In this document: piece after piece, positions 1 to 24,270 of the stretch
How positions within the stretch are numbered: the first letter of the stretch is position 1
Layout of the letters: each line of letters starts with the position of its first letter
From: Escherichia phage FL04
Sequence record: PP358550
Length of the DNA stretch: 64,000 nucleotides
Strand: one strand, 5' to 3'
Notes under the pieces: model-generated
What the model was told of the DNA's origin: nothing
The model's database searches: none
Seen by the model: only the letters and a program-made list of their open reading frames with translations
Made by a program: the position numbers and the translations under genes

Positions 1-2
1 CT

Positions 3-629: not shown

Positions 630-659
630 TCTATAATGAAACTCTAAGGAGACTATATT

Positions 660-1361: not shown

Positions 1362-1561
1362 TTACGATGAAATGTCTTAAAAGCACATATGCACTTTTTG
1401 AAGCCGGAAAAGAATATGAATTTACAGAACTTGATTCGGTAGGCCGTTTTCGTGTATTCTCTTACACATCGCCAGATGGTAGTGTCTACAAATTTGGCTT
1501 AGATGAGAACGGAGAGAATGAAAATGAAAGTGTGGGAACTTTCATGAAATTTGAGCTATAA
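1358..1561 (+). CDS. hypothetical protein (67 aa)
   Basis: ATG overlapping upstream stop; ends 10 nt before primase start. Confidence 0.55.
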   Translation: MITMKCLKSTYALFEAGKEYEFTELDSVGRFRVFSYTSPDGSVYKFGLDENGENENESVGTFMKFEL

Positions 1562-1570
1562 GAGGTTAAT

Positions 1571-2599: not shown

Positions 2600-2607
2600 T
2601 TAATGAG

Positions 2608-3132
2608 GTGAATATGTCAGAATTTAATTCTTGTGCTGGTCTGGTTAACGAAAAAGATATTAACGCGGCTATCGCCGCATATCATCACGCTATTGCAGAA
2701 GGTAAAGATCCGTTTCAGGTGATGCTAGAAATGCAAACTGGTTTGCAGGTTGCATTATCAGAAAAATTTGATTGGGTCCCAAATCCAACTAAGCTAGAGA
2801 CTTGCGGTGAAATGCTGGATTGGATGCAGCGGATGGATGACGCTATCGCAGACGAAACACGAGAGCTTTACACATCGCTGGGTGGAATGTCCAATGGTAA
2901 AGATGCAAGTGCAATCTGGAAAATGTGGAAAAAGAACCACGGGGAAGCGCGAGCGCGTAAATTCTCTGAACTGTCACCGGAAGATCAGCTTGAAGTGAAA
3001 TTTGAATTTGTGGATGCGATCCACTTCATTCTGTCAAAGATGATCCCGCTGGGTATTGACGCTCAAGAACTCTTTATTCTGTACTATCTGAAAAATGCTG
3101 AAAACTTCGCCCGTCAAGAACGCGGCTACTAA
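2608..3132 (+). CDS. hypothetical protein, possibly all-alpha NTP-pyrophosphatase-like (candidate dCTPase gp56 analogue)
   Basis: 174 aa; acidic ExxxE / ExxD patterns (ETCGEMLDWMQRMDDAIADETRE, EDQLEVKFEFVD); T4 gp56 is recalled as a similar length, but that match is from memory and unverified. Confidence 0.35.
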   Translation: MNMSEFNSCAGLVNEKDINAAIAAYHHAIAEGKDPFQVMLEMQTGLQVALSEKFDWVPNPTKLETCGEMLDWMQRMDDAIADETRELYTSLGGMSNGKDASAIWKMWKKNHGEARARKFSELSPEDQLEVKFEFVDAIHFILSKMIPLGIDAQELFILYYLKNAENFARQERGY

Positions 3133-3139
3133 AAATTAG

Positions 3140-3168
3140 TTGACACTACTCTATAATGGTTTTATTAT
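3140..3168 (+). promoter_or_regulatory. sigma70-type early promoter (TTGACA-17-TATTAT)
   Basis: -35 TTGACA 3140-3145, -10 TATTAT 3163-3168; immediately followed by hairpin plus T-run. Confidence 0.5.
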
Positions 3169-3198
3169 GCCTCCCGTCGAAAGATTGGAGGCTTTTTT
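3169..3198 (+). terminator. hairpin plus T-run (terminator/attenuator) whose 3-prime arm contains the GGAGG Shine-Dalgarno of the next gene
   Basis: GCCTCC...GGAGGC stem followed by TTTTTTATT, 4 nt before ATG 3202. Confidence 0.55.
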
Positions 3199-3201
3199 AT
3201 T

Positions 3202-3705
3202 ATGCAATTTACACCAGAAGAACTTAACATCATTGATGAATTGATGAACTCTAAAGAAAATATCGATATGTCGATCCTTAATGGATTGATCGAAAAGACT
3301 GAACGGTTAGTGCATCATGAAGCCTTGTATCGCGGTGTGAGCAAAAGAGAAGGCCGTAAGCTGGATACCTTAATTGTAGGTGATTCTTTCGTTGTAGATC
3401 GTCCTATGAGCTTTACGCCACTGCAATCAACAGCAGAGGACTTTGCAACCGATGTTTATGCAACAGGAAAGATTATTGCAATAAAACCTACCAAGCCTTG
3501 CATGAATTATTACGAACATGCTATTGACCGAGTGGTGTCTAAAGAGTATGACAATCCGACTACTCGACTGTCTTTGTATGCTATGTTGGCAGATGAGCGC
3601 GAGTGCATATACAAGACAGGGACGACCATGATCCTTGATGAGATCGAGGAAGTTTACGCGTGTAATGGCGATCTGATAGAGATTTACAAATTTTCTTTAA
3701 TTTAA
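3202..3705 (+). CDS. putative ADP-ribosyltransferase (ModA/ModB-like)
   Basis: 167 aa; R (LYRGVS), S-x-T (MSFTPLQST) and E-x-E (ADERECI) motifs in the order expected for R-S-E type ARTs. Confidence 0.4.
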   Translation: MQFTPEELNIIDELMNSKENIDMSILNGLIEKTERLVHHEALYRGVSKREGRKLDTLIVGDSFVVDRPMSFTPLQSTAEDFATDVYATGKIIAIKPTKPCMNYYEHAIDRVVSKEYDNPTTRLSLYAMLADERECIYKTGTTMILDEIEEVYACNGDLIEIYKFSLI

Positions 3706-3708
3706 GTG

Positions 3709-3738
3709 TTGACAGCACAAACCAGATAGACAATAATA
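3709..3738 (+). promoter_or_regulatory. sigma70-type early promoter
   Basis: TTGACA 3709-3714, 17-nt spacer, AATAAT-like -10 at 3732-3738. Confidence 0.55.
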
Positions 3739-3766
3739 CACACATACCAACTAAGGAGAATCAATT

Positions 3767-4522
3767 ATGAAACTGTTTGCTTTTAAATCTAACGAAGAAT
3801 TGGCGCTGGTTGTTTTCCGGCTGAACTCTATCATGGCTGGCGCTTCACGTCGCAACAAAGACTTCTCTATGAGCTTAGTCACTGTTCGTAACATTTACCG
3901 TCAGACTCATTGTGTCTATTCAGGTGAGGCTTTCGGTGAAGGTGATGACGGACTCTCCTTAGAGCGCATTGATTGCAATCTGGGATATGTTGATGGCAAT
4001 GTAATTCCGGTTAAACTGAAATACAATTCTTTCCGTGGCAATCACACTATCGAATCTCTTAAAGAGATCCAAGAACTAGGAACTAACGGTAAACTTTCTG
4101 ATGATGAAATTGCCCTACGTGCGAAGTACATCGAGTGGATCGAACTTAACGAGAATCGCATCAAAAATCAGGAAATGGCAATCGAAGAAAAGAAATTAGC
4201 AATCGAGCGCCACAAAAAGCACAACGAACCGGAGAAAGCAGAGGCAGCCGAGCGAGCGATTAAAAATACTCTCTTCCGTATGGAAGAACGTTATCAGAAA
4301 ATTGCAGATCTCAAGCAAGCCCTTAGCGAAATCAACAAGAAAGAAGAAAAACTTAAGGCTATTGCAAACAATACCGAAATCGTGCTAAAATATACCAGCG
4401 TTTTGATTGAATCTCTTTCTAAGTATGAGAACTTAACGCCAGCACAAAAAGAACGCGTGAAATACGGGCTTCCGATTGATGCGTCGTGGATTGAATTGAT
4501 GAAAGCGAAGGTAGGTTTATAA
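3767..4522 (+). CDS. hypothetical protein with C-terminal coiled coil
   Basis: 251 aa; RBS AAGGAGA; N-terminal region has a degenerate HNH-like stretch (SLERIDCNLGYVDGNV) without His; C-terminal half is K/E-rich. Confidence 0.6.
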   Translation: MKLFAFKSNEELALVVFRLNSIMAGASRRNKDFSMSLVTVRNIYRQTHCVYSGEAFGEGDDGLSLERIDCNLGYVDGNVIPVKLKYNSFRGNHTIESLKEIQELGTNGKLSDDEIALRAKYIEWIELNENRIKNQEMAIEEKKLAIERHKKHNEPEKAEAAERAIKNTLFRMEERYQKIADLKQALSEINKKEEKLKAIANNTEIVLKYTSVLIESLSKYENLTPAQKERVKYGLPIDASWIELMKAKVGL

Positions 4523-4836
4523 TGCATGTATTTGCTGTATGTTATCGTGATAAAGACGGATTCTTTCAATACTCAGTGGACGCGAAAGGTCGCGTCCTAA
4601 CTTGCGAAACACATGATGCTGCGTTAGCGTCAATGTGTGATCAGATAGATTATTGTGAGAGTCTATTGGCGGGTGAACCGAAATACAAGGTTGTACCTAA
4701 ACGAAAATTTGGCATAATCCGGTCTTCTGAAATTGTTCGGGATGGTATAGAATATAAAATTCCTGAATATGAAAAAGAACGGGTACGGCGAGAACTCAAT
4801 ACTATCTGTGTTCGCAAGGTGAGGATTTTAGGATAA
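4522..4836 (+). CDS. hypothetical protein (104 aa)
   Basis: Start overlaps upstream stop (TAATG); stop overlaps dda start. Confidence 0.55.
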   Translation: MHVFAVCYRDKDGFFQYSVDAKGRVLTCETHDAALASMCDQIDYCESLLAGEPKYKVVPKRKFGIIRSSEIVRDGIEYKIPEYEKERVRRELNTICVRKVRILG

Positions 4837-6227
4837 TGAGCAGAGTATTAACTTTCGATATGTTAACAGACGGGCAAAAACATGCTTTTGATGTTCTAAT
4901 GAAACGCATTGAACAAAAGAAGCATACAACTGTCCGGGGTGCGGCGGGTACTGGTAAAACCGCAATGATGAAATTCATTGTTCAGGAAATGGTCCGCCGT
5001 GGTGTAACTGGTGTGGTTTTGGCAACGCCTACCCACCAGGCTAAAAAAGTTTTGAGTAAAGCGGTAGGTCGTCAAGCATTTACTTTACATGCACTACTGC
5101 GACTAAACCCGACCAACTATGAAGATACTCAAGTATTTGAGCAAAAAGATACTCCTAAGCTAGATGATGTTCAGATCATCATTGTTGATGAAGCGAGTAT
5201 GGTCGATAAGAAACTATTTGATATTCTCATGAAGAGTATCAACGGTCGAATTGTTATTATTGCCGTGGGTGATCTGTACCAGTTACGACCAGTTGATCCG
5301 AGCGGTGCAACGTCGATCTCTCCTTTCTTCACCGATGAAAGGTTTCAGAATGTAGAACTTACAGAGATTAAACGATCTAATGCGCCAATAATTGATGTGG
5401 CGACCGCTGTCCGTAATGGTAAATGGGTATTCGAAAAGCAGTGCGGTAACGAGGGTGTATTCCATAGCTCAACTCTGCCGGAGTTTATGAAGCATTATTT
5501 CGAAACCGTTAAAACGCCGGAAGACCTTCTAGAAAACCGTATTCTGGCCTACACTAACAAGAGCGTCGAAAAACTCAATGAAATTGTGCGTAAGCGCGTT
5601 TATAACACCGATGAACCAGTGATTGTAGATGAAATTCTGGTTACTCAGGAACCATTGATCGAATATCTGCGAGATGAACGCGGGAAGAAGATTCCCAATG
5701 TTATTTTTAACAATGGTGAGATGATCCGAGTTAAAGAGGTCATCCCGCGTGAATTTACATTACGTTGCACGGGTGTAGATCCGCAACCAGTTTTAGGATA
5801 TACTCTGAAAGTGGAAAGCGTCGATGATGACGAAGACAAAGAAATCCTAAATCAGAAAGTCGGTTTAGATGCAGTCGGAATAACTACAGATAAACCAGAT
5901 TTAGTAGAAATCAACATTCTGACAGAACAACGTCAGAAGAACATTTTCTCTATCTATCTGAATACGGTCGCCGGACAATATCGCGAAATGAAGAAAGAGA
6001 ATCCGAATTTTAAACCGGATTGGGATTCTTTCTGGACGATGAAGCGTATGTTCTTGAATGTAAAAGCATTACCAGCTTGCACTATTCATAAGTCACAAGG
6101 AATCAGCGTAGACCGCGTGTTCCTGTATACCCCTTGCATGTGTACAGATAATGTTGACTTTGAATTGGCAATGCAGTTATTATATGTGGGTGTTACCCGT
6201 GCACGGTATCGTGTAGACTATATTTGA
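4836..6227 (+). CDS. dda: DNA helicase Dda (SF1B)
   Basis: 463 aa; Walker A GAAGTGKT, IIVDEASMVD, VGDLYQLRPV, RSNAPIIDVAT, LYVGVTRARY; collinear with T4 Dda. Confidence 0.93.
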   Translation: MSRVLTFDMLTDGQKHAFDVLMKRIEQKKHTTVRGAAGTGKTAMMKFIVQEMVRRGVTGVVLATPTHQAKKVLSKAVGRQAFTLHALLRLNPTNYEDTQVFEQKDTPKLDDVQIIIVDEASMVDKKLFDILMKSINGRIVIIAVGDLYQLRPVDPSGATSISPFFTDERFQNVELTEIKRSNAPIIDVATAVRNGKWVFEKQCGNEGVFHSSTLPEFMKHYFETVKTPEDLLENRILAYTNKSVEKLNEIVRKRVYNTDEPVIVDEILVTQEPLIEYLRDERGKKIPNVIFNNGEMIRVKEVIPREFTLRCTGVDPQPVLGYTLKVESVDDDEDKEILNQKVGLDAVGITTDKPDLVEINILTEQRQKNIFSIYLNTVAGQYREMKKENPNFKPDWDSFWTMKRMFLNVKALPACTIHKSQGISVDRVFLYTPCMCTDNVDFELAMQLLYVGVTRARYRVDYI

Positions 6228-6238
6228 GGAATATTATT

Positions 6239-6406
6239 ATGATTATGCGAAGTATCCCAGAATTTGACGAAGTGAAAGTATCGTATCATGGCGAATGTGT
6301 ATACATGCATTTCAGGTGGGGTAACTACGGATGGGGTATATCTGGAATCAGCGAGGCCGATTGTATTAATTCCATGATAGATCACTTCACTAAGCGGGGT
6401 TACTGA
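6239..6406 (+). CDS. hypothetical small protein (55 aa)
   Basis: ATG 6239 with GAGGA 8 nt upstream; track ORF begins at an upstream TTG. Confidence 0.45.
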   Translation: MIMRSIPEFDEVKVSYHGECVYMHFRWGNYGWGISGISEADCINSMIDHFTKRGY

Positions 6407-6407
6407 T

Positions 6408-6647
6408 ATGATGATTATTGATGAACTTGATAAACTGTTATGTTTAGATGCCATCGTAACATTCCATCGTGATAAAATTCACGCTGATTATGCACAACAT
6501 GTAATGTCTTTTCGACATAAAGTACAGTCGGTACAGGCGATGGAAAGTTTACTGATTAATGTTTGCAATTATCGGTCAACCAAATGCAATCTAGTGTTAG
6601 ATAAAAACGATCTGGAGTTATTCCGGCACATCGCGGAGGATATTTAA
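6408..6647 (+). CDS. hypothetical protein (79 aa)
   Basis: Tightly packed between upstream ORF and dexA. Confidence 0.5.
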   Translation: MMIIDELDKLLCLDAIVTFHRDKIHADYAQHVMSFRHKVQSVQAMESLLINVCNYRSTKCNLVLDKNDLELFRHIAEDI

Positions 6648-6648
6648 A

Positions 6649-7317
6649 ATGCTTCCAGTGGATTTAATGATTGACTTTGAAAGTTTAGGTTATCCGCCTG
6701 ATGGGGCGGTTATCAATATGGCGGCAATCGGATTTAAAGAAGATCCGCACAATCCACCTACATTTAAAGAACTGGTCGACAATTCCTTTCTGGTAAAATT
6801 TGATATTCCTTCCCAGAAAGGTGTAAGGGTGTTTGATCATGGTGTGGTTGAATGGTGGAAGAATACCGCCTCAGAAGGCATGAGAAAGCAATTAATCACA
6901 AATGGTACGGAAGTATCAACTAAAGAAGGTTTAGCGCGTTTTAACGCATTCTGTGAAGCCGTAGGAGTAGATCCGGTTAAATCCGTAATGTGGTCACGCG
7001 GTAATGCGTTTGATATTCCGTTACTAGTTGATATGATCCGCCGTGCACACAATACACGAGAGACGTTCAGCCTTGAACCTGTGCGATTCTGGAATATCCG
7101 AGATGTTCGCACCGCCATTGAGCGTACATTGATGCATCGCGGGATGTGTGAGTGTCCGTTACCAATGGGTACGCTAGATGGTTTTATCGCACATGATGCA
7201 ATTCATGATTGCGCTCGCGATATTCTTATGCTAATCTATGCACAACGTTATGCTATGGGTCTGGAAGACCTACCAGAAAATCCAGATCCAAATTCAGTTA
7301 AGAAACAAAGGGGATAA
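6649..7317 (+). CDS. dexA: exonuclease A (DexA, DnaQ-like 3-prime to 5-prime exonuclease)
   Basis: 222 aa; N-terminal DFESLG exonuclease motif, later HDAIHDC; T4 synteny (dda-dexA). Confidence 0.8.
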   Translation: MLPVDLMIDFESLGYPPDGAVINMAAIGFKEDPHNPPTFKELVDNSFLVKFDIPSQKGVRVFDHGVVEWWKNTASEGMRKQLITNGTEVSTKEGLARFNAFCEAVGVDPVKSVMWSRGNAFDIPLLVDMIRRAHNTRETFSLEPVRFWNIRDVRTAIERTLMHRGMCECPLPMGTLDGFIAHDAIHDCARDILMLIYAQRYAMGLEDLPENPDPNSVKKQRG

Positions 7318-7318
7318 T

Positions 7319-7492
7319 ATGCCATTATACGATTATTCTTGTGAAGAACACGGTCAATTTCAGAAAATCCGCAAAATTTCCGAACGTGAAAAGGCAGAAT
7401 GCCCTGAATGTGGTAAAGAATGCAAACAGGGATTAACTGCCCCGCGCGGTATTAATGGCGGGTACTATGATAAAAATGTGCGCGTGTCATGA
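7319..7492 (+). CDS. FmdB-like zinc-ribbon protein (57 aa)
   Basis: MPLYDYSCEEHGQF...CPECG pattern typical of FmdB-family Zn-ribbons; not in track at this start (track ORF starts further upstream). Confidence 0.5.
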   Translation: MPLYDYSCEEHGQFQKIRKISEREKAECPECGKECKQGLTAPRGINGGYYDKNVRVS

Positions 7493-7595
7493 GTCATATA
7501 CTTGACAATCACTCAATTTTTAATATGATTGTTGCAGCCGTCTTTGTGGCGGTTGCAGTAAGTTATGGTTATGTTATGTATTGGAGAGAGAAAAA

Positions 7596-8324
7596 GTGAA
7601 CATCAAAAAGTTTATTGTTGATGTTCTGGAGGCGAAAAGCGGAAATAGACTAAACTCAAATCTTTTTAAAGAAAATAAAATTCCAGAAATGGAAAAATTG
7701 TATCCTGCGGAATTTCAGATTATAAGGAATGAGTTTAAGTTCTGTAATGGAGGTCTCAGAAATCAACAACCATATAACGAGGCTGTTTATAGATTGCGCC
7801 ACGGAATAACAGGAAGAGTTAAATGTGCAAGATGCCCAAATCCTGTAAATTATCATACATACTCTAGAGGCTATCATAAATTTTGCTGTTCTCGTTGCGC
7901 ATCGTTGGACCAGGCACAAAACATAAAGATTGAACGAGAATGCGCTAAATGTGGTAAACCATTTGTTGCAATAAACGTATCTCAAAAGTATTGTTCTGAT
8001 GAGTGTCGATTGTTCGAGAAGCGAGAGCGAGAACTAGATAGGCCATATCATCATGCCGAAAATGGTATAAAAATATCAAAAAGAGAAGCGTTAGAAATTT
8101 TAGGCAGAGTTGACAATTGCGAGATATGCGGTGTAAAATTCATAAATGAACGATGCGGCGTGAGAAAACGCCAAAAGTGGAAACATCTTGACCATAATCA
8201 TAAGACTGGTAAGATAAGAGGTGTTCTTTGTGGAAAATGTAATGCCGGATTAGGGATGTTCAAAGACGATCCTCAAAGATTATATGCGGCATTGGAATAC
8301 CTGAAACGAACTGACGGAGAATGA
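7596..8324 (+). CDS. Endonuclease VII-domain (HNH-like) nuclease with N-terminal Cys-rich zinc-ribbon repeats; putative homing endonuclease
   Basis: C-terminal HLDHNHKTGKIRGVLCGKCNAGLG matches Endo VII catalytic motif; several CxxC pairs upstream; probable GTG start at 7596 after GGAGAGAG (track starts at TTG 7581). Confidence 0.7.
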   Translation: MNIKKFIVDVLEAKSGNRLNSNLFKENKIPEMEKLYPAEFQIIRNEFKFCNGGLRNQQPYNEAVYRLRHGITGRVKCARCPNPVNYHTYSRGYHKFCCSRCASLDQAQNIKIERECAKCGKPFVAINVSQKYCSDECRLFEKRERELDRPYHHAENGIKISKREALEILGRVDNCEICGVKFINERCGVRKRQKWKHLDHNHKTGKIRGVLCGKCNAGLGMFKDDPQRLYAALEYLKRTDGE

Positions 8325-8330
8325 TATAAT

Positions 8331-10154
8331 ATGTCTGAATTTTTGCTGTTAGATGATCGCGCTCACTGTCTTAAGAGACCTTCAATGTACATCGGGTCAA
8401 CGACTTATGAATCACACAATCGTTTCCTATTTGGAAAATGGACCAAAGTTTCATACGTTCCTGGTCTAGTTAAAATTATTGATGAAATTATCGACAATTC
8501 TGTAGACGAGGCGATCCGCACTAATTTTGAGTACGCTAATGTTATTAGTGTGGATATAAAAGATAACATTGTGTCAGTAACAGATAATGGTCGCGGTATT
8601 CCGCAACATATTGTTACGACGCCAGAAGGGAAACAGATTCCACAACCAGTTGCTGCATGGACACGAGCTAAAGCAGGGTCTAACTTTGATGATACAAATC
8701 GTGTTACTATGGGTATGAATGGGATCGGAAGCGCGCTCACATCATTTTTCTCGTCCTGGTTTACTGGTGTGACGTGTGACGGAGAGAATGAACTGACCGT
8801 TCAATGTACCAATGGTGCAGAAAATATTAGCTGGTCATCTAAGCCGTCAAAACTGAAAGGAACTAAGGTTACGTTCTGCCCCGATTTCGATCATTTTGAA
8901 GGTATGATCATGTCACAAGAAATTTCAGATGTAATTTGTGACCGTATGTATTCCTTAAGTGTAATCTTTCCTAAGATCACGTTTAAGTTTAATGGCAAAA
9001 AGATAACCAGCAAATTCAAGGATTATGCTAAACTATACAATGATGATCCGTTTGTCATTGAAGATAAAAACTTTTCACTTGCCCTAGTTCCTGCGGTTGA
9101 AGGTGAAGGTTTTAAATCAGTATCATTTGCTAATGGTCTGTTTACCAAAAACGGGGGAACACACGTTGATTATGTGACAGATGATCTTTGTGAAGAGATT
9201 GTAAAACGAATCAAGAAAGAATATAAGGTTGATGTTACTAAAGCTGCGGTTAAGTCTGGATTGACCTGTATTCTTATTGTTCGTGAATTGCCAAACCTCC
9301 GTTTTGATTCACAGACAAAAGAACGATTGACTAATCCAACTGGTGATATCAAGCGTCATATTGATCTTGATTTTAAAAAACTGGCTAAAGTCATTGCGAA
9401 GAAAGAAAACATTATCATGCCTATTATTGCTGTAGTCCTGGCACGCAAAGAGGCAGCAGATAAAGCGGCAGCGACTAAGGCAGCAAAGGCAGCGAAACGG
9501 GCTAAGGTGGCAAAACACGTTAAAGCTAACCTTATTGGAACTGACGCAGAAACTACCCTGTTTTTGACGGAAGGTGATTCCGCGATCAACTATCTGATCT
9601 CTGTACGTGATCAAGATTTACATGGCGGTTTCCCGTTGCGAGGCAAAACTCTTACAACGTGGGAACAACCGGAGGCAAAGATCGTTAAGAACGCCGAAAT
9701 TTTTAACATCATGGCGATCACTGGCTTGCAATTTGGTGTTGATGCATTGGAAGTTATGCAATACAAAAATATTGCGATTATGACAGACGCTGATACTGAC
9801 GGGATTGGGTCTATTAAGCCTAGTCTGATCTCTTTCTTTGCACGTTGGCCTGAATTGTTCGAAGATGGACGAATCCGGTTTATCAAAACACCTATTATCA
9901 TTGCGGAACCAAAGAAAGGTGATGATGTTCGATGGTATTATGACCTAGAAGATTTTGAGAACGACCGAGATAATATCAAAGGTTATAGCATTCGATATAT
10001 CAAAGGGTTAGCATCGCTTACAGAATCAGATTATCATCGCGTGATCAACGATCCTGTAATGGAAATCATCACGTTACCGGAAAACTATAAAGAGCTATTC
10101 GATTTGCTCTATAGTGAAGATGCAGATCAGCGCAAAATTTGGATGCAATCATAA
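8331..10154 (+). CDS. 39: DNA topoisomerase II large subunit gp39 (unsplit, GyrB-like ATPase)
   Basis: 607 aa; Bergerat ATPase motifs (IDEIIDNSVDEAIR, DNGRGIP), Toprim region (LTEGDSA, MTDADTDG); length matches a fused gp39+gp60 as in T2-type phages. Confidence 0.93.
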   Translation: MSEFLLLDDRAHCLKRPSMYIGSTTYESHNRFLFGKWTKVSYVPGLVKIIDEIIDNSVDEAIRTNFEYANVISVDIKDNIVSVTDNGRGIPQHIVTTPEGKQIPQPVAAWTRAKAGSNFDDTNRVTMGMNGIGSALTSFFSSWFTGVTCDGENELTVQCTNGAENISWSSKPSKLKGTKVTFCPDFDHFEGMIMSQEISDVICDRMYSLSVIFPKITFKFNGKKITSKFKDYAKLYNDDPFVIEDKNFSLALVPAVEGEGFKSVSFANGLFTKNGGTHVDYVTDDLCEEIVKRIKKEYKVDVTKAAVKSGLTCILIVRELPNLRFDSQTKERLTNPTGDIKRHIDLDFKKLAKVIAKKENIIMPIIAVVLARKEAADKAAATKAAKAAKRAKVAKHVKANLIGTDAETTLFLTEGDSAINYLISVRDQDLHGGFPLRGKTLTTWEQPEAKIVKNAEIFNIMAITGLQFGVDALEVMQYKNIAIMTDADTDGIGSIKPSLISFFARWPELFEDGRIRFIKTPIIIAEPKKGDDVRWYYDLEDFENDRDNIKGYSIRYIKGLASLTESDYHRVINDPVMEIITLPENYKELFDLLYSEDADQRKIWMQS

Positions 10155-10157
10155 CAC

Positions 10158-10185
10158 TTGACATACAAGGGAGATTCTCTATAAT
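10158..10185 (+). promoter_or_regulatory. early promoter cassette with hairpin (PeSL-like)
   Basis: TTGACA 10158-10163, TATAAT 10180-10185; inverted repeat AGGGAGA/TCTCCCT brackets the -10. Confidence 0.6.
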
Positions 10186-10219
10186 GGGAGTCTCCCTTTT
10201 CTTTTATGAGGATTTAATA

Positions 10220-10519
10220 ATGAGCAAAAAGAATAACATGATGATGAGTATGGCAAAGTTCATGGAAGCAGACCTGATCAAAAATACAGTACAGCATGAA
10301 CGCCAGAGAGAAGCCGCAGTGATTGCAGAACAAGGTTTTCAGGTTATCCACAATCCACCTAAAGACACGGTTAAATCGAAATACAGAGACGATCTGAAAG
10401 ACCATGAAGTACGGGAACTGGTTAATGATCTGCGTGACATTGCCATCAAATATCATGGTTATCAGTGCTTACGAGAACTGATCGCAGAGCGAGTAATGGA
10501 TGCATTGAAAAAAGATTAA
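10220..10519 (+). CDS. hypothetical protein (99 aa)
   Basis: ATG 10220 with GAGGA upstream, downstream of promoter cassette. Confidence 0.55.
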   Translation: MSKKNNMMMSMAKFMEADLIKNTVQHERQREAAVIAEQGFQVIHNPPKDTVKSKYRDDLKDHEVRELVNDLRDIAIKYHGYQCLRELIAERVMDALKKD

Positions 10520-10526
10520 AAATCTG

Positions 10527-10555
10527 TTGACACTGGATCGGGGATATATCATAAT
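10527..10555 (+). promoter_or_regulatory. early promoter cassette with hairpin (PeSL-like)
   Basis: TTGACA-17-CATAAT; GGGGA/TCCCC inverted repeat spanning the -10. Confidence 0.6.
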
Positions 10556-10585
10556 GTCCCCATCGAAAACAAAAGGTTGACTTAT

Positions 10586-10780
10586 ATGAAACCGTTTAAG
10601 AATGAAGAAACTCAAAAATTTTGTGAAAAAATTGCAGAAATCTACTTGACAGGGAATAAGGAAAAAGCTAATATTATGTTCAAAGAGTCGGTTTCCATGA
10701 TGAAAGTAGCACGCTGGGAACTGATCGCAATGCAAGACCAAATTCGTTATCTAGTAACAAAGGAGAATCAAAATGCGTAA
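10586..10780 (+). CDS. hypothetical protein (64 aa)
   Basis: ATG 10586 downstream of promoter cassette. Confidence 0.5.
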   Translation: MKPFKNEETQKFCEKIAEIYLTGNKEKANIMFKESVSMMKVARWELIAMQDQIRYLVTKENQNA

Positions 10781-10967
10781 CCATTACATCGAACTGGCAA
10801 GCCGTAAAGTTTCAGACCTGAAAGGCGTAATTGCTTACTATGAAGAAGTCCTGAAAAACAAAATTGCTGATTGGGAACGTAAAGAATACAGCAAGTGCTT
10901 AGAGAAAAGCCGCGCTGAACTGGTTGACGCAGAAGCCCATCTGCAATGGGTAATTGAAAATGTATAA
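10773..10967 (+). CDS. hypothetical protein (64 aa)
   Basis: AAGGAGAATCAAAATG initiation region. Confidence 0.55.
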   Translation: MRNHYIELASRKVSDLKGVIAYYEEVLKNKIADWERKEYSKCLEKSRAELVDAEAHLQWVIENV

Positions 10968-10978
10968 GGAGTAGAAAA

Positions 10979-11236
10979 ATGAGTCGAAGTTTTGATTTTA
11001 TGATCGCCAAGTGTCATCGAGAAAAGAAATCGATGGACCTGTTTATGAAATGTCTGAGGTATGAATATGCACACCTTCGTAAACACAAAATTGATCCGCA
11101 AGTTTCCTACGAAAACATCAAGAAATATGCGAAAGAAGTGATTGACAACGATTGCACCGTGACATATAATGCGTTTATTGATTTATGGGCGTGGGATGTA
11201 ATCTACGCAGAGATGGACAAAGAAGATTTTAATTAA
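10979..11236 (+). CDS. hypothetical protein (85 aa)
   Basis: RBS GGAG upstream; precedes rIIA. Confidence 0.55.
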   Translation: MSRSFDFMIAKCHREKKSMDLFMKCLRYEYAHLRKHKIDPQVSYENIKKYAKEVIDNDCTVTYNAFIDLWAWDVIYAEMDKEDFN

Positions 11237-11250
11237 GTGAGGATTATATT

Positions 11251-13359
11251 ATGAAAATGCATATTGATAATGAAGAAGTATTTGGCAGTGACTTGAGCGG
11301 TGCGGTTGATTTTTCTCTGAAAGCAAGTAGCAAGGCTTTTATGGTGCTTTCTAAAAACACTTATCAATATTGTGAACGTGCTTGTGTCCGTGAGTATTCA
11401 TGTAATGCCACCGACACCCACAAAGAAGCCGGAACCTTAGATCGTCCGTTTGACATTCATTTACCGACTGCAATCGAACCGTATTTTTCTGTGCGCGATT
11501 ATGGTACTGGTATTCCGTCTAAGAAAGAATTAGAACAACTGTTTACGGTTTACTTTGAATCAACAAAAGACCAGACTAATGATTATATCGGATCTTTTGG
11601 TTTAGGTGCGAAGTCTGCTTATAGCTATACCGACACCTTTACAATCGTAAACTATTACAATGGTCGCGCTTATGGCTTTACGGCATTTGTGCAAAACTCT
11701 ATGCCGAAAATGGTGCAGATTTTCGACGAACCGACCTGTGAAGACAATGGTCTGAAAATCACTATTCCGGTGAAAGAAAAAGACATTCAGACATGGCATC
11801 GAGAAGCGCAATTTGTACTGCGTCATTTTGGGGAACACAAACCGAATATCAATGCAATCGAAATTAATTATTTCCCTAGCTTTGATAATTATTATGTTTG
11901 TAATGGGCGTGATAACGATTCCTATGTAGTATATGCAATCATGGGTAAGATCCAGTATCCGATCCCGTATGAATATGTTCGCGGAACATGGTTAGAAGCT
12001 GTAAACCGCCAGCACCAGACCATTTACATTAATTTTGAGTTGGGTGATCTAGACCTTATGCCATCGCGTGAAGAAGTTCACTTGTCAATTGAGACTAAAG
12101 CGAACATCGAAAAACGCATTGCAGAAATCAATGAAATGATGTTGGAAAAGGTTAAAGAAAAGATCGCCAACATTAAAACAGAGCGTAAACTTGCGCAATT
12201 TATGAGCGAGTATTCATCGACTCAACGCAATATTATTAGCAAGATGGGTAAGATCGGACAATGGGATGATCCGGTAGCAATCTATAATAAGTTTGTGAAT
12301 GCGGGTAAAGATTCGCCTAATGACGTAGAAGGTCAGGTGTATACTCTGTATCGTACTCGTCACACAATCAGTAAATTGCGCCCTGCTTTCGTTAGCAGTC
12401 AATACAACATTACGCATTTTGTATGGATGCATAAAGAAGATATTCTGTGTGTAATTGATGATACCGATAAACCGAAACTGCGTGCACTGACTCTTAACGG
12501 CATGGTCCAGGAATACGGAATCAATAAAAAGGTACTGGTGTTCCGTCAGCGCAACGAAAAACATATGGAGACTTTCGAGTACATCAAACAGTATTATGAT
12601 GATTCTGAAATGACCGTGATTAAGGTATCAGAGGCCGATGATCTGCGTGCTAAAGCAGTTAAACCGGAGAAGACCGAGCGTACACAACGTGAAGCTACTC
12701 CCAAGCTGCCTAACGTGTATATTATGGAAAAGATTGGTGACAGTTGGCATAAAACCAGCCATCACATGAAAGCGGCAGAGATTCGCGAGTTATCAGGCTT
12801 GCACATGTTCCGCGTAGGTGATGCATTCGAAAGCCGTAGTCGTAAATCGATCTATAGTGAAAATACATTACATACGGCGCTTGACTACTTCGGGGTAACA
12901 AAGTATATTATTACTCGAAACGAGACACAAAAATATCTCGTTGACGAACAATTGGAATGTGCGCTAGAATTTGTTCGCGGTAAGCTGGCTGGTCTGGCTA
13001 AGAAGGTTAAGACCAATCATCTGGGGTATGGCGAATATCTGGGTGTGATCACTATGTTGTTTCATGACGATGAACTAGAACGCTGTGTTCCAGAATTTAT
13101 TGACAGACTGTACGGTCGTCATTATAATAAAGAGGTTTCCAAGTTACTCCTTCGTACTCGTTGGATTATGGACGAAGAAACTAAAAAGATCTGTGATGAA
13201 AAATTCACGGCAGCAAACGAACGAATTAAAGCAGTTTGTGCGAAGTTTAAAGAGAATAGCCCGTTACTGTATGATATTGTAGATAACTGGTATCGTATTC
13301 TGCACAACGACAAACGCGCACAAGACTTTATGAAACTGGTTAAGAATGTTAAATTTTAA
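11251..13359 (+). CDS. rIIA: rIIA protein (lysis inhibition / membrane integrity protector)
   Basis: 702 aa; N-terminal region and overall length similar to T4 rIIA; adjacent to rIIB in conserved order. Confidence 0.8.
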   Translation: MKMHIDNEEVFGSDLSGAVDFSLKASSKAFMVLSKNTYQYCERACVREYSCNATDTHKEAGTLDRPFDIHLPTAIEPYFSVRDYGTGIPSKKELEQLFTVYFESTKDQTNDYIGSFGLGAKSAYSYTDTFTIVNYYNGRAYGFTAFVQNSMPKMVQIFDEPTCEDNGLKITIPVKEKDIQTWHREAQFVLRHFGEHKPNINAIEINYFPSFDNYYVCNGRDNDSYVVYAIMGKIQYPIPYEYVRGTWLEAVNRQHQTIYINFELGDLDLMPSREEVHLSIETKANIEKRIAEINEMMLEKVKEKIANIKTERKLAQFMSEYSSTQRNIISKMGKIGQWDDPVAIYNKFVNAGKDSPNDVEGQVYTLYRTRHTISKLRPAFVSSQYNITHFVWMHKEDILCVIDDTDKPKLRALTLNGMVQEYGINKKVLVFRQRNEKHMETFEYIKQYYDDSEMTVIKVSEADDLRAKAVKPEKTERTQREATPKLPNVYIMEKIGDSWHKTSHHMKAAEIRELSGLHMFRVGDAFESRSRKSIYSENTLHTALDYFGVTKYIITRNETQKYLVDEQLECALEFVRGKLAGLAKKVKTNHLGYGEYLGVITMLFHDDELERCVPEFIDRLYGRHYNKEVSKLLLRTRWIMDEETKKICDEKFTAANERIKAVCAKFKENSPLLYDIVDNWYRILHNDKRAQDFMKLVKNVKF
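13100..13128 (+). promoter_or_regulatory. internal sigma70-type promoter near the 3-prime end of rIIA
   Basis: TTGACA 13100-13105, 17-nt spacer, TATAAT 13123-13128. Confidence 0.45.
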
Positions 13360-17878: not shown

Positions 17879-17913
17879 TTGACACTGAATAATGGGAGTA
17901 GTAATATACTCCC
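17879..17913 (+). promoter_or_regulatory. PeSL-type early promoter (hairpin GGGAGTA-N6-TACTCCC overlapping -10)
   Basis: TTGACA 17879-17884, 17-nt spacer, TAATAT 17902-17907 inside hairpin. Confidence 0.65.
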
Positions 17914-18215: not shown

Positions 18216-18386
18216 ATGAACTGGTATAAAATTTGGAAAAATCAGGTGGAGGCTTATCTAGGGTATAAGCCCACCGACAAAGAATTACTTGATGCAATGT
18301 ATGAAGACGGACTAAATCCGAAAGTAGCCGCGCAAGAATACGCGGAATGGGTGAAGGTCGAAGATAACCTAAAGAGGAAACTATGA
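18216..18386 (+). CDS. hypothetical small protein (56 aa)
   Basis: ATG 18216 just after upstream stop. Confidence 0.45.
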   Translation: MNWYKIWKNQVEAYLGYKPTDKELLDAMYEDGLNPKVAAQEYAEWVKVEDNLKRKL

Positions 18387-18607
18387 AGAAAATGATTGCG
18401 ATTGCTTTGTTGGCGAGCGCATGTACTGTAAATGCTAACACCGCAGCGATGGTCGCGGCTGTAACTGCCGCAAATGCTTCCGTTATGGCATCGCAAGAGG
18501 CAGCACGCCAGCAAGCACAACAAGAAGCCAAGCGAAAAGCACATGAGGCGACGAAAAATTTTCACGAAAATAACAAAAAACTAGTTGACGCCAAAGGTCA
18601 TCGGTAG
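18383..18607 (+). CDS. hypothetical secreted protein (74 aa)
   Basis: Signal-peptide-like N-terminus MKKMIAIALLASACTVNA; Ala/Gln-rich mature part. Confidence 0.55.
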   Translation: MKKMIAIALLASACTVNANTAAMVAAVTAANASVMASQEAARQQAQQEAKRKAHEATKNFHENNKKLVDAKGHR

Positions 18608-18897: not shown

Positions 18898-18932
18898 TTG
18901 ACGTAAAGATAAGGGAGTAGTAATATACTCCC
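18898..18932 (+). promoter_or_regulatory. PeSL-type early promoter
   Basis: TTGACG-17-TAATAT with GGGAGTA/TACTCCC hairpin. Confidence 0.65.
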
Positions 18933-18955: not shown

Positions 18956-19168
18956 ATGAAATCTATTGAGCAAGTAGTGACTGAATTTATGAGCTACGAA
19001 GGAAACCGCATCTTTGGACGTTCTCAAGTTCGCGAGATCGTAGAAGAAGTTGCGGGAGAGTTTGCGGAATCTGGTCACGTTATCACGCAAGAACGTAAAG
19101 AAGAAGCAGTAAGCCAGATCATGGCTATGCAGAAAATGCGTATTAATGCACGAGCGGGTAAAAATTAA
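18956..19168 (+). CDS. hypothetical protein (70 aa)
   Basis: AAGGAGAATCACATG initiation region. Confidence 0.6.
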   Translation: MKSIEQVVTEFMSYEGNRIFGRSQVREIVEEVAGEFAESGHVITQERKEEAVSQIMAMQKMRINARAGKN

Positions 19169-19178
19169 AAAATAGTTG

Positions 19179-19207
19179 TTGACAGGGGATCGCCGATCCC
19201 CTATAAT
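19179..19207 (+). promoter_or_regulatory. PeSL-type early promoter with palindromic 17-nt spacer
   Basis: TTGACA-GGGGATCGCCGATCCCC-TATAAT. Confidence 0.7.
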
Positions 19208-19238
19208 GAACTCATCAAGACAACGAAGGAGAATCAAA

Positions 19239-19394
19239 ATGAAACATACTCACAAATTAATGGTTAAATTTGAAGGCGCTAAGGGATATGAACGTTACGG
19301 TGTATTCTTCTCTGAGGATGATGCATGGGATGCTGGTTTGGCGACGTTCGCCGAGCACAACAACATTGAAGACTTTACTGTAGAAGAAATTTAA
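19239..19394 (+). CDS. hypothetical small protein (51 aa)
   Basis: AAGGAGAATCAAAATG initiation region. Confidence 0.5.
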   Translation: MKHTHKLMVKFEGAKGYERYGVFFSEDDAWDAGLATFAEHNNIEDFTVEEI

Positions 19395-19401
19395 AAAGTA
19401 T

Positions 19402-19436
19402 TTGACATCGGATTAAGGGAGTAGTAAGATACTCCC
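19402..19436 (+). promoter_or_regulatory. PeSL-type early promoter
   Basis: TTGACA-17-TAAGAT with GGGAGTA/TACTCCC hairpin. Confidence 0.65.
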
Positions 19437-19464
19437 ATCAAGACAAAACACTGAGGAATATATT

Positions 19465-20211
19465 ATGAAAAACATTATCGCTGCTATCGTTCTTTCTGCT
19501 ACTGCTTTCGGTGCTAACGCTGCGTCCTTTGATTGCGCTAAAGCTACTACCAAATCAGAGAAGTTTATTTGTGCTAATGAGTCTATCTCCGCACTGGACT
19601 CTAAACTTCATGAGGTGTATGTTAAGGCTGTTAAGATTGATCCGTCTCTGAAACAAGAGCAACGAAACTGGAATAAAACTGTTCGTGATACAATGATCAA
19701 TATCGGGCAGATTCAGCCACTGGAGGCTGTATATAACGCTCAAATCCAAAACTTGATGAATGTATTACCTAAAGAAGAAAGCGATTCAGAGACTTCTGCG
19801 AAGGTTGAAGAAGAACAACCGAAACAGGAAGCAAAAGTGGTAGAAGAACCGAAGGTCGAAACTTTTACCTATCAATGCACCGTTCGTTATGAGTGGAGTA
19901 TGAAAGATGGAATTTCCACAAAAATTAAAGAGGCTCCACTGTATGCAAAATATGGAAACCAGCCAGGGGATCTTAAAGTAACCATTAAAAATGGGAAGAT
20001 GGTTGATTTTGTATACATTGATGAATACAACGTACACAAAGCAAACGTACAAGAAACCGTTATGACTAAAGGCGGGTTTTATAAGAATGTTGGCAAGAAA
20101 GATCTATATGAATACTCCGTTTTCGAACCAAACGACGGAACTATTCGATTTGAAAAACGTCATCCTACATTCGGTGGCGCAATTGATGTAGATCAATACG
20201 TTTGCAAGTAA
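19465..20211 (+). CDS. secreted DUF1311/LprI-like domain protein
   Basis: 248 aa; signal peptide MKNIIAAIVLSATAFGANA; FDCAKATTKSEKFICANESISALDSKLHEVY...QRNWNK pattern typical of DUF1311 (LprI-like); acidic linker; C-terminal Cys-containing domain. Confidence 0.6.
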   Translation: MKNIIAAIVLSATAFGANAASFDCAKATTKSEKFICANESISALDSKLHEVYVKAVKIDPSLKQEQRNWNKTVRDTMINIGQIQPLEAVYNAQIQNLMNVLPKEESDSETSAKVEEEQPKQEAKVVEEPKVETFTYQCTVRYEWSMKDGISTKIKEAPLYAKYGNQPGDLKVTIKNGKMVDFVYIDEYNVHKANVQETVMTKGGFYKNVGKKDLYEYSVFEPNDGTIRFEKRHPTFGGAIDVDQYVCK

Positions 20212-20222
20212 GAGGTTAAATT

Positions 20223-20495
20223 ATGCAATTCAATAACATGAAGATTACAAAAGATTGGTGGAAGGCGATGCAAGATACTCCAGAAACCAAATTAAGCGAG
20301 ACAACAACCACAATACAAGTTGATTACGAAGATCCGAAAGACATATACAGAGAGCTTATAAAAGCTGGAAACTATCAAACACCAGATGGCCTTATTGACA
20401 TGATGGTTAAAGGTCTGTATAGTGGTAAAAATCCAGATATTTTACCGTGGTACGAGGGATATTTTAAAACATATCGTGACCACAACCGAAAATAA
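20223..20495 (+). CDS. hypothetical protein (90 aa)
   Basis: GAGG RBS. Confidence 0.55.
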   Translation: MQFNNMKITKDWWKAMQDTPETKLSETTTTIQVDYEDPKDIYRELIKAGNYQTPDGLIDMMVKGLYSGKNPDILPWYEGYFKTYRDHNRK

Positions 20496-20518
20496 TTTGT
20501 TGACGTGAGGATTATATT

Positions 20519-20710
20519 ATGGTAATTTTTAATCGTGATGGTATTATAGTTCGACAGCATCCATTCCTTGAATACTATCAGGTTGAACAATGGGGATATG
20601 GAGATTGCAACCGCTCATACGGTCAAAGCTGGGGATACCGTACAGTTTTTGAATCAACTAATATTGACAAAGTACGACAGAAAGTTTTAGAACTTCTTAA
20701 CGATAAGTGA
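20519..20710 (+). CDS. hypothetical protein (63 aa)
   Basis: GTGAGGATTATATTATG initiation motif. Confidence 0.55.
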   Translation: MVIFNRDGIIVRQHPFLEYYQVEQWGYGDCNRSYGQSWGYRTVFESTNIDKVRQKVLELLNDK

Positions 20711-20720
20711 GGATTACATC

Positions 20721-21089
20721 ATGGAAATTCAAAACAATTACGAAAAATGTGTTATTATCAATGATCTGCAACGTCAATTGCATCATTACGAAACCGATTA
20801 TAAAACAGCAACCAAAACCGGAAAGCTGAAAGTGTGGGAAGTCTGGTATAACCGGAACTATCTGGGAAGCATCCACAAACTTGATCGCAGTGATGTTTAT
20901 ACAATGCATGTGGGCGCGTGTGGCGAATCGGATGTAGCATCTAATTTCATGGAAGCACTTGCATTCTATGTAGAATATCTGGTAGACTATATCGAGTTGG
21001 AAGAGGAAGTGGTAGAATTGCTTCCTCCACCGGAAGAAGCGCCGGAAGCAACGATCCTGAAAGCATTAAAGAAAATCTTTGTTAAGTGA
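20721..21089 (+). CDS. hypothetical protein (122 aa)
   Basis: GTGAGGATTACATCATG initiation motif. Confidence 0.55.
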   Translation: MEIQNNYEKCVIINDLQRQLHHYETDYKTATKTGKLKVWEVWYNRNYLGSIHKLDRSDVYTMHVGACGESDVASNFMEALAFYVEYLVDYIELEEEVVELLPPPEEAPEATILKALKKIFVK

Positions 21090-21889: not shown

Positions 21890-22213
21890 ATGATCGAGTT
21901 TGAAATTGACAACTTTCACGAAAAAGCAGAAGACCTAACCAAAATTTTGATTAGTCGAGGTGCATATAATACGAAAGATATTATAAAAGAAGTTAATGTA
22001 GCGATGGACGCGATCCGAAAGGAATTTAAACATATTTCAGCGATTGGAGAAAATGGTCATCTTGAAGATGTTGAGCTGGTAGCACTGCGACGCTATTACT
22101 TCTTTGTTGATTGCATCATTGATCTAGCTAAAAATTATAGTCATTACATGAAAGATATTGTAAACGATGCACGTAAGTTGGCAGAGAATGTTTACGGGAA
22201 GTTTCCAGAATGA
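21890..22213 (+). CDS. hypothetical protein (107 aa), tandem paralog of 21443..21775
   Basis: ATG 21890 after GAGGTGA; shared C-terminal motif. Confidence 0.55.
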   Translation: MIEFEIDNFHEKAEDLTKILISRGAYNTKDIIKEVNVAMDAIRKEFKHISAIGENGHLEDVELVALRRYYFFVDCIIDLAKNYSHYMKDIVNDARKLAENVYGKFPE

Positions 22214-22458
22214 AATTAGAACAAGCGATTGTATACTTTGAGATGGGCTATGATATTGCTCGTGTAGAGTGGGAAGATGGTGATTTTGTCCGATTGATTG
22301 ATCTTCCAGAAACAGCTATTGCACTGGTCAAAGTAGAAAACGGCATACAACGAAATTACGCGTTTTCTGACGAAGACAAACAAGCCGATGACTGGTACGC
22401 TACCTGTTTTCATCATACAGCGTCAAAATGTGATTCAGGGGCTTCTATGCGCCAATAA
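22210..22458 (+). CDS. hypothetical protein (82 aa)
   Basis: Start overlaps upstream stop; last + strand gene before convergent terminator. Confidence 0.5.
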   Translation: MKLEQAIVYFEMGYDIARVEWEDGDFVRLIDLPETAIALVKVENGIQRNYAFSDEDKQADDWYATCFHHTASKCDSGASMRQ

Positions 22459-23487: not shown

Positions 23488-24270
23488 CTAAACAGCCGGT
23501 CCGTAAATAGCTCCGCGATTTTGCCACGTTGGAGAAGACCCTATAACAGCATATCCAGAATCGCCGCCATTATATTCAGATCCTTGACCACGAATATTAC
23601 ATCTACCTCCTGCGGCGCCTACCTCACCACCGCTTCCACCATTATAGATACCGTTCACGGACCCCGAACCGGGCGCATAAAGAGTACCAGCAGTTGCGCC
23701 TGATTGCATATCAATAGATCCGCCCGGCGCACCAAACGGACGCCCACCGCCACCGCCAAAGGTTAATCTCATTTGTGAAAAAGGAGAATAATACCCACCA
23801 CCGCCACCGCCACCGCCACCTGCAATAGCTCCACCATTATTAATTCTTAGTCTCCCACCAATATCATTTTGAATACAATGCCCACCGGCTGATCCAGGAC
23901 CATTGCTACCGCCATTCCCGCCACGACCATACATCGTTACGCCATGTATATTCAACTGAACATATTCATTCGGTGTATCTCCGTACATAAAGAATAAAGG
24001 AACATCTTTAGAATATGATACTAAATCTCCAGTGATATTAAACACTATAGGTGTACTACCTGCTTCAAAGCATCTATCACGGAACCACTGACCGTTGAAG
24101 TTATGGTCTGCACCAAGTGTATGAATAATTTCTCGCGAGCGACCTGCAAATTGACTCATCCAGCAAGGAACACCCAATCTTAATTGACCAGCCGCTTGAC
24201 TCATCCATCTTTGTCCTGTTTCATTTGCGGCTGAACTTCCAATCCAACCAGGAACACCAACTACTGCCAT
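23488..24270 (-). CDS. 38: receptor-recognising tail fibre adhesin gp38 (T2-type, glycine-rich motifs)
   Basis: 260 aa; N-terminus [48 protein letters not shown] matches T2-type gp38 attachment domain; poly-Gly motifs ([11 protein letters not shown]). Confidence 0.88.

Follow-up and report, generated by a model that had tools for sequence, protein, structure and literature searches.

The stretch of Escherichia phage FL04 DNA analysed here (sequence record PP358550; 64,000 nucleotides, hereafter the window) contains, at positions 19465–20211, a gene for a protein of 248 amino acids that is predicted to be exported. The N-terminal half of the protein, a DUF1311-type helical module, is nearly constant among close homologs, whereas the C-terminal half, a predicted beta-barrel, occurs as several highly divergent and interchangeable types at one and the same locus. 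This allelic C-terminal cassette is the main feature of the gene, and it was overlooked in the first-pass annotation of the window, which had concentrated on a likeness to lysozyme inhibitors. The gene and the features around it are listed below; ORF denotes an open reading frame, and PeSL an element that combines an early promoter with a stem-loop.

19402 to 19436, plus strand: predicted PeSL-type early promoter and stem-loop (TTGACA, 17 nucleotides, TAAGAT; hairpin GGGAGTA-gtaaga-TACTCCC)

19453 to 19457, plus strand: Shine-Dalgarno sequence GAGGA, 7 nucleotides before the ATG, from direct reading of the sequence

19465 to 20211, plus strand: complete ORF of 248 codons plus stop, with an intact reading frame; homolog of RB49p262 and phi1 ORF262

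19465 to 19521, plus strand: predicted Sec signal peptide for signal peptidase I, residues 1–19, with cleavage predicted between ANA and AS

19522 to 19773, plus strand: DUF1311/LprI helical domain (PF07007), residues 20–103, with the pair Cys24–Cys36; the invariant module

19774 to 19854, plus strand: acidic, Glu/Lys/Pro-rich spacer, predicted to be disordered, residues 104–130; its length depends on the allele and it holds the 5' breakpoint near 19835

19855 to 20208, plus strand: polymorphic predicted beta-barrel of 8–9 strands, residues 131–248, allele type A, bracketed by Cys138 and Cys247

20223 to 20495, plus strand: downstream ORF of 90 amino acids, homolog of RB49p261; PHROG 15915, function unknown

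Close homologs of the protein are 88–100% identical over residues 1–104, but only 15–40% identical over residues 135–248. The barrel alleles fall into at least five types, at 15–40% identity to one another, in genomes that are otherwise 93–100% identical. A census covered 58 phage records with N-domains that match that of the window protein at 95% identity or more; type A is present in 44 of them. Another 12 have C-domains only about 36% identical to type A, of type C (Phi1, GEC-3S, MIZ2/3/6 and others) or type B (UPWr_E1), and JSE has a fifth type, E. Type D occupies the identical locus in a 174.8-kb Krischvirus-like metagenomic contig, and a divergent type E lies at the corresponding locus in another metagenomic contig. 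Types A, B, C, D and E have all been seen, then, at one locus in Krischvirus-like genomes.

The borders of the cassette are sharp. Sliding-window DNA comparison with Phi1, JSE and UPWr_E1 gives flanks that are 93–100% identical; identity drops to 35–58% from about position 19835, within the acidic spacer, and the divergent stretch ends near 20210 in UPWr_E1 and near 20490 in Phi1 and JSE. Because the 5' breakpoint is intragenic, the exchange amounts to domain swapping at the linker. Shuffling of PeSL-bounded cassettes was considered as the swap mechanism and rejected for the same reason, the breakpoint being in the spacer of the ORF itself. The downstream 90-amino-acid ORF exists in two forms and was swapped along with the barrel in Phi1 and JSE. 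The Phi1/JSE form abuts or overlaps the stop codon of the barrel gene. This arrangement may reflect translational coupling or functional linkage; the prophage copies described below are without this ORF.

The two halves of the gene also differ in how they have been selected, as judged from the ratio of nonsynonymous to synonymous divergence (dN/dS) calculated by the Nei-Gojobori method. For the N-domain of the window protein against other phage and prophage copies, synonymous divergence (dS) is 0.15–0.24 and dN/dS is 0.03–0.08. Against a more distant lineage (P0020), dS is at least 1.2 and dN/dS is still about 0.05, which indicates that conservation of the N-domain is selective and not just a result of recent ancestry. 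Between types of the C-domain, synonymous sites are saturated (proportion of synonymous differences, 0.76–0.83), whereas within a type, phage and prophage copies show a dS of about 1.7 and a dN/dS of 0.12–0.23. Given saturation between types and constraint within them, the alleles are old, functional and maintained side by side. A non-functional ORF that merely hitchhikes was considered as well, and is ruled out by dN/dS values of 0.03–0.23. Judged from these comparisons, the pattern is that of a long-maintained multi-allelic polymorphism, in which old barrel lineages have been recombined onto a homogenised N-terminal half.

The domain plan proposed in the first-pass annotation, a cleavable signal peptide followed by a DUF1311-type domain, an acidic linker and a Cys-containing C-terminal domain, was borne out. 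The signal peptide has a classical signal peptidase I layout, with Lys2, a hydrophobic core (IIAAIVLSATAF) and then GANA/AS, the slash marking the predicted cut. Residues 1–17 are the sole hydrophobic stretch of the protein. The A-x-A/ASFDC junction does not vary, even among homologs that share no more than 32–41% identity in the N-domain. A lipobox was looked for in the signal region and none was found. Taken together, these features point to export and cleavage of the protein.

Pfam PF07007 (LprI, formerly DUF1311) matches residues 24–76 at 24.1 bits (cutoff 22), a match that spans profile positions 1–71 of 106; the N-domain alone scores 25.4 bits. All of seven diverse N-domains match PF07007 (best E 1.6e-7), and a profile built from the seven retrieves, at E 8e-5, the tandem-DUF1311 protein PDB 6AR7. 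Canonical family members have additional cysteines beyond the 'W..R' motif; the phage proteins have Cys24 and Cys36, and the later Cys pair of proteins P0021 and P0022 is absent from them. Structure prediction, which had been suggested as a check, agrees with the proposed plan. AlphaFold2, run with a 17-sequence alignment, places four helices in residues 30–98 at a predicted local distance difference test score (pLDDT) of 64–83, disorder in residues 104–127 (pLDDT below 50) and an all-beta domain in residues 131–247. The spacer has a net charge of −6 over residues 104–131, and indels between alleles are visible in its alignment. The protein has four cysteines, at positions 24 and 36 in the N-domain and at 138 and 247 at either end of the C-domain, and it is probably stabilised by two disulfides, Cys24–Cys36 and Cys138–Cys247.

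When the C-domain was modelled alone from 12 allelic sequences, the result was an up-and-down barrel of 8–9 strands with a pLDDT of 90.6 and a predicted template modelling (TM) score of 0.83. The BFVD model of the RB49 ortholog superposes on this barrel at a TM score of 0.92. Cys138 and Cys247 are invariant in every homolog, and across alleles the only invariant C-domain positions are C8, G19 and C117 in domain numbering. None of the 12 C-domains has a Pfam match, MliC included, at E up to 10. A profile of the 12 alleles, searched against 1.84 billion representative proteins, recovered its own family alone; the other returns were low-complexity or Calx-beta noise (P0023) and one fragment (P0024). 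For the whole protein, sequence search of the PDB gave only chance matches, NCBIfam gave no meaningful match, and Foldseek found nothing in the PDB for the full-length model at E of 0.001 or below. The model thus gives the barrel a fold class but no family, and on the strength of these searches the barrel is an orphan domain.

Assignment of the C-domain to the MliC/PliC inhibitors was tried and rejected at the sequence level, with no Pfam match and an hhalign probability of 0.5% against E. coli MliC. In fold comparison, many unrelated barrels score equal to or above MliC/PliC. The inhibitory motifs of MliC/PliC (SxSGAxY and YxxxTKG) are not conserved across the alleles. The likeness to the layout of LprI, a DUF1311 domain plus a small barrel, is a lead only and not a test.

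The gene is embedded in a well-populated phage lineage. Its surroundings from 19000 to 21000, a 2-kb region, match 58 phage records at 90–99% nucleotide identity (megablast), all of them RB49-like T4-type coliphages of the genus Krischvirus, and the protein matches PHROG 14799 at E 7e-151; these matches, together with the purifying selection described above, exclude a chance ORF. Its counterparts RB49p262 and phi1 ORF262 are both annotated as hypothetical proteins. RB49 positions 12621–1 (reverse) align to window positions 1–13359 and, by extrapolation, the window should cover approximately RB49 113–164 kb plus 1–12.6 kb. The gene belongs to a series of small ORFs, all on one strand, that is flanked by gene 52 (topoisomerase) and by the holin gene t; a distance of 2.3 kb separates it from t.

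The first-pass annotation had assigned the gene to an early hyperplastic region, and the sequence agrees with both parts of that assignment: the gene is one of the small ORFs that separate gene 52 from t, and a sigma-70-like promoter with a stem-loop immediately precedes it. The promoter, at 19402–19430, scores 10/12 in a promoter scan, and its −10 region sits inside the loop of the hairpin at 19417–19436. The hairpin GGGAGTA-N6-TACTCCC occurs six times in the window (17894–17913, 18913–18932, 19417–19436, 46973–46992, 47254–47273 and 47480–47499), against 0.11 expected by chance. PeSL elements in the hyperplastic regions of RB49 and phi1 consist of a strong sigma-70-like early promoter and a terminator stem-loop (PMC2839356). 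The gene has the marks of a PeSL-associated hyperplastic-region ORFan, with promoter and stem-loop immediately 5' of it. Because the upstream element fits the PeSL description, there are good grounds to expect that the gene is probably transcribed early. In a scan of 16.5–23.5 kb, the hairpins at 17894, 18913 and 19417 each overlap the −10 of a sigma-70-like promoter. The six hairpins fall into two groups, as would be expected if two hyperplastic regions are each marked by PeSL elements.

Several neighbouring genes deserve mention in their own right. The ORF at 22210–22458 (plus strand, 82 amino acids) scores 27.9 bits (cutoff 25) with PF11195, 'Thoeris anti-defense 2-like', and is by position and length the apparent counterpart of RB49p255. 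Because of this match, the shared early gene run would include a candidate anti-Thoeris sponge 2 kb downstream. On the minus strand, the ORF at 23488–24270 encodes a 260-amino-acid gp38-type tail-fibre adhesin. Only five Krischvirus records (LF73P4, MIZ4/5, KMB43 and FL15) have it at 98% identity or more. The gp38 proteins of many Tequatrovirus (T-even) phages are about 95% identical to it, and RB49 is without a gene there. This adhesin looks like an inter-genus transfer of a receptor-binding module. About 0.9 kb upstream of the 248-amino-acid protein's gene, the ORF at 18383–18607 (plus strand, 74 amino acids) begins with a signal-like sequence, MKKMIAIALLASAC, followed by a remainder rich in Ala, Gln, Glu and Lys. 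It has no PHROG or Pfam match, and no counterpart was seen in the RB49 annotation of the interval. It may be a second exported small protein.

The gene is not confined to virulent phages. It is present in 26 of 5426 complete E. coli genomes, as a single chromosomal copy in each, with 92–93% DNA identity over the N-terminal half only. The Prokaryotic Genome Annotation Pipeline (PGAP) names these copies 'lysozyme inhibitor LprI family protein'. In four E. coli neighbourhoods examined, the gene is the last of a prophage that has a lambda-type terminase, and it adjoins hicAB; in one annotated RefSeq locus a truncated hicB lies beside it. The prophage is inserted in the hicB antitoxin gene, with an intact hicA toxin gene adjoining (E. 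coli O55:H7 DEC5A, L009 10034–10342; L002–L005). Prophage contigs of about 35 kb in IMG/VR also terminate with this gene. Consensus scans of one prophage locus (L004) identified a promoter-like site at 7934–7961 and a terminator-like hairpin at 8969–8993. The layout is that of a prophage moron, with a predicted promoter and terminator of its own at the prophage end.

The prophages carry types D, E and B-like, and the phage and prophage pools are thus polymorphic for overlapping alleles. Homology between the prophage and T4-like phage copies starts at the start codon. In the type-D prophage, it extends beyond the stop codon over 26 codons that are left of the T4-like gene downstream. This extent of the homology indicates capture by a temperate phage from a Krischvirus-like phage. 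Since the prophage copy has no intact partner gene, the protein must act alone in the lysogen.

Proteins of the same plan, 232–252 amino acids long, are found in Klebsiella Marfa, Aeromonas AS-sw and LAh10, and Salmonella SSU5. They share the signal peptide, a DUF1311 domain starting from ASFDC and a Lys/Glu/Pro-rich linker, whereas their C-domains are unrelated, are bracketed by two cysteines and have no Pfam match. The Marfa protein (L010 1501–2259) is encoded between the primase gene 61 and the dCTPase gene 56. The sp gene of T4 lies on the opposite side of gene 61 from this position.

Occurrence in prophage and lytic phage alike might be expected of a protein that acts on the receptors used by phages. 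The barrel could bind the phage's own receptor from the periplasmic side, as T5 Llp does, or block an inner-membrane entry factor, and so exclude relatives. A periplasmic protein with what is probably a small disulfide-bonded beta domain could act in this manner, and the polymorphism could follow different receptors. However, type A co-occurs with different receptor-binding modules in the few genomes compared: RB49 is without a gp38 at the adjacent position, and a gp38 of Tequatrovirus type is present in the window and in a few relatives. Finding allele A with different tail-fibre tips weakens the idea. In addition, the protein is not a lipoprotein, and the periplasmic faces of porins are conserved, so that alleles as divergent as these are not called for. 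Masking of receptors or ports is very improbable on this evidence.

The first-pass annotation reasoned from the LprI family to a lysozyme inhibitor, and this step is not supported. According to Cestero et al., LprI of M. tuberculosis also contains an MliC domain that in experiments was enough to give resistance to lysozyme, and the 'lysozyme inhibitor' annotation of PF07007 is without experimental support (PMC7933661). ScwA, a DUF1311 protein of Salmonella, is periplasmic and disulfide-bonded, and its deletion left lysozyme sensitivity unaltered (PMC7933661). ScwA modulates the host enzyme MltD: it raises MltD levels and causes lysis on overproduction, and its disulfides are essential (PMC7933661). 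DUF1311 proteins with signal peptides are encoded downstream of lysozyme-like or wall-targeting type VI secretion system (T6SS) effectors (PMC9796082; PMC12135965), and are predicted to be immunity proteins in Pantoea (PMC9796082) and next to WHIX effectors (PMC12135965). The DUF1311 protein Etsi4 of enterohaemorrhagic E. coli rescues E. coli from the periplasm-acting effector Etse4, as determined experimentally (PMC12981562). Based on the effector neighbours and the Etsi4 rescue, DUF1311 is associated with antagonism of wall-active enzymes.

It is nevertheless conceivable, if unlikely, that the DUF1311 domain or the whole protein inhibits a lysozyme, for example the gp5 tail lysozyme of a superinfecting T4-like phage, and serves as an analog of Spackle. 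The family name, the lysozyme-like T6SS effectors that adjoin DUF1311 genes and the neutralisation of a periplasm-acting wall toxin by Etsi4 are all in keeping with such a role. So is the lack of an annotated sp in the syntenic interval between genes 61 and 41 of RB49. T4 Sp gave only chance tblastn matches in the window plus RB49 1–50 kb, the best of them (E 0.034) inside gene 41, and neither sp nor imm was found at T4-syntenic sites. On the other hand, the activity of LprI is attributed to MliC, and loss of scwA leaves sensitivity to lysozyme as it was. The barrel has neither a Pfam match to MliC nor more than the 0.5% hhalign probability noted above, and the inhibitory motifs are not conserved across its alleles. 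Five alleles at 15–40% identity are hard to square with a conserved lysozyme target, and the protein has no sequence similarity to Spackle.

The properties of ScwA raise the possibility of a host-directed role instead. The protein could modulate host peptidoglycan enzymes by binding or stabilising lytic transglycosylases or endopeptidases, and so tune wall remodelling, cell size or the timing of lysis in infection or lysogeny. ScwA is itself a soluble periplasmic DUF1311 protein that raises MltD and causes lysis when overproduced, and an invariant N-domain is what a conserved host target would demand. The holin gene t is also only 2.3 kb away, but the link to the lysis genes is one of proximity alone. 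A conserved host target leaves the ancient multi-allelic barrel unexplained, and the architecture of ScwA differs, with DUF1311 at the C-terminus and no barrel. A ScwA-like role is rather unlikely when these points are weighed.

The architecture, the allelic pattern and the distribution of the gene can be brought together in a different model, in which the protein protects the envelope against incoming proteins. A soluble periplasmic protein would be made early from its own sigma-70-type PeSL promoter and exported by the Sec pathway, with the signal peptide cut after Ala19. The constant DUF1311 helical module would supply an invariant function by binding a cell-wall enzyme or envelope component, as effector or anchor. 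The flexible acidic spacer would join this module to the barrel, whose five or more ancient, interchangeable alleles would set specificity. The protein would then intercept a variable protein that enters the periplasm from outside. The likeliest target would be a component with which competing phages degrade the wall or penetrate the envelope; bacterial toxins are a further possibility. Competing phages are favoured as the target because the gene has been kept behind an early promoter in virulent phages, and because no Spackle homolog was found in the window or RB49 1–50 kb. Bacterial wall toxins are the alternative target, given the precedent of T6SS immunity. From such an interception, the lytic phage and the lysogen would both gain.

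An envelope-protection or exclusion ('immunity-like') factor is the possibility that we tentatively favour, at somewhat less than even odds. The first-pass annotation had also raised a spackle-like function, and a spackle-like or exclusion role is a reasonable proposal by analogy. A broader and more doubtful proposition is that the protein represents a new class of periplasmic exclusion or immunity factors, in which a constant DUF1311 module is combined with interchangeable barrel 'warheads', each neutralising different incoming phage or toxin proteins. The alleles would be kept under frequency-dependent selection and would pass back and forth between T4-like virulent phages and the temperate prophages of E. 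coli, and the Klebsiella, Aeromonas and Salmonella relatives would belong to the same class.

Several observations weigh against envelope protection. The members of the subfamily have no known binding partner or phenotype, and ScwA, the one studied enterobacterial protein with DUF1311 only, regulates host enzymes and not foreign ones (PMC7933661). The Pfam match is barely over threshold and covers two thirds of the model, and conserved cysteines three and four are missing. Selection on the barrel within a type is purifying over the whole domain and not positive. Defence models in PADLOC give no meaningful match for the protein. No effector or toxin gene is adjacent: the phage neighbours are all small ORFs belonging to PHROGs of unknown function, those in the prophage are phage genes and hicAB, and T6SS effector-immunity pairing was not seen in either setting. 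Finally, the fold neighbours of the barrel include ligand-binding lipocalin-like proteins and Cap15. Because of these neighbours, a small-molecule ligand for the barrel is conceivable. The protein would then be a carrier or sensor whose barrel binds a periplasmic lipid, isoprenoid-linked intermediate or nucleotide, like lipocalin-like, YceI and Cap15 barrels. We consider such a role very improbable.

If the envelope-protection reading is true, periplasmic defence by phages and lysogens could be studied in a simple system of one gene, and its natural specificity variants would be suited to domain-swap work. The design of phage cocktails could also be affected, since the alleles of therapeutic Krischvirus phages might exclude different co-administered phages. 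Whatever its function, the locus clearly shows that a domain was replaced within a gene, at a linker, and that genes have moved repeatedly between T4-like virulent phages and temperate prophages. For proteins that contain DUF1311 only, the designation 'lysozyme inhibitor LprI family', now spread by PGAP and UniProt, overstates what can be said.

Some of these features had been recorded before. A weak DUF1311 match in RB49, 'RB49ORF260c', was listed in 2006 with an E value of 0.2 (PMC1524935). This entry is presumably the gene described here under older numbering. LprI-like labels already exist in UniProt and BFVD for the RB49 ortholog and in PGAP for the E. coli copies, so the observation of the first-pass annotation was already in databases. 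In the literature, of which coverage was incomplete, no description was found of the orphan barrel, of the allele swap at the linker site, of how selection has acted on the two halves, or of alleles common to virulent and temperate phages. Likewise, nothing relevant was found on RB49 with spackle or on LprI with phage superinfection. The allelic structure appears to be undescribed so far.

Comparison with known systems places the protein near several families. Like LprI (Rv1541c), it is predicted to be exported and joins a second, beta-rich domain to a helical DUF1311 domain in which a pair of cysteines is N-terminal. However, LprI is a lipoprotein with an MliC domain, whereas the phage protein has neither a lipobox nor an MliC signature; its DUF1311 match is partial relative to LprI and PF07007, and its second domain is an orphan barrel. 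With ScwA it shares a length of about 250–275 amino acids, and like ScwA it is predicted to be a soluble periplasmic DUF1311 protein of enterobacteria with structural disulfides. ScwA differs in having DUF1311 at the C-terminus and an otherwise helical remainder; it is chromosomal, regulates MltD and is not polymorphic like the phage protein. The T6SS immunity proteins (Etsi4, those of the Pantoea hcp island and those paired with WHIX effectors) have a signal peptide and a periplasmic DUF1311 domain, and neutralise, or are predicted to neutralise, incoming wall enzymes. Such proteins are often retained as 'orphans' with the toxin absent. The phage gene, in contrast, is without effector or T6SS context, and its product has an additional spacer and polymorphic barrel.

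T4 Spackle (Sp, gene 61.3) is likewise a small periplasmic protein of a T4-type phage with a signal peptide. Protection of the infected cell wall is established for Sp and only proposed for the 248-amino-acid protein. Sp has 97 amino acids in a single domain, bears no sequence similarity to the protein described here, and is conserved, not multi-allelic, across 927 phage records. The inhibitors MliC/PliC, ACP and PhiA show no sequence or profile similarity to the protein. Llp of T5, Ltp of TP-J34 and Cor, all of them lipoproteins or membrane proteins, act on known targets, which are receptors or the tape measure. These moron and exclusion factors are exported envelope proteins encoded by single accessory genes, situated at prophage ends with a promoter and terminator of their own or expressed early in lytic growth. 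The protein described here differs from them in being predicted to be soluble.

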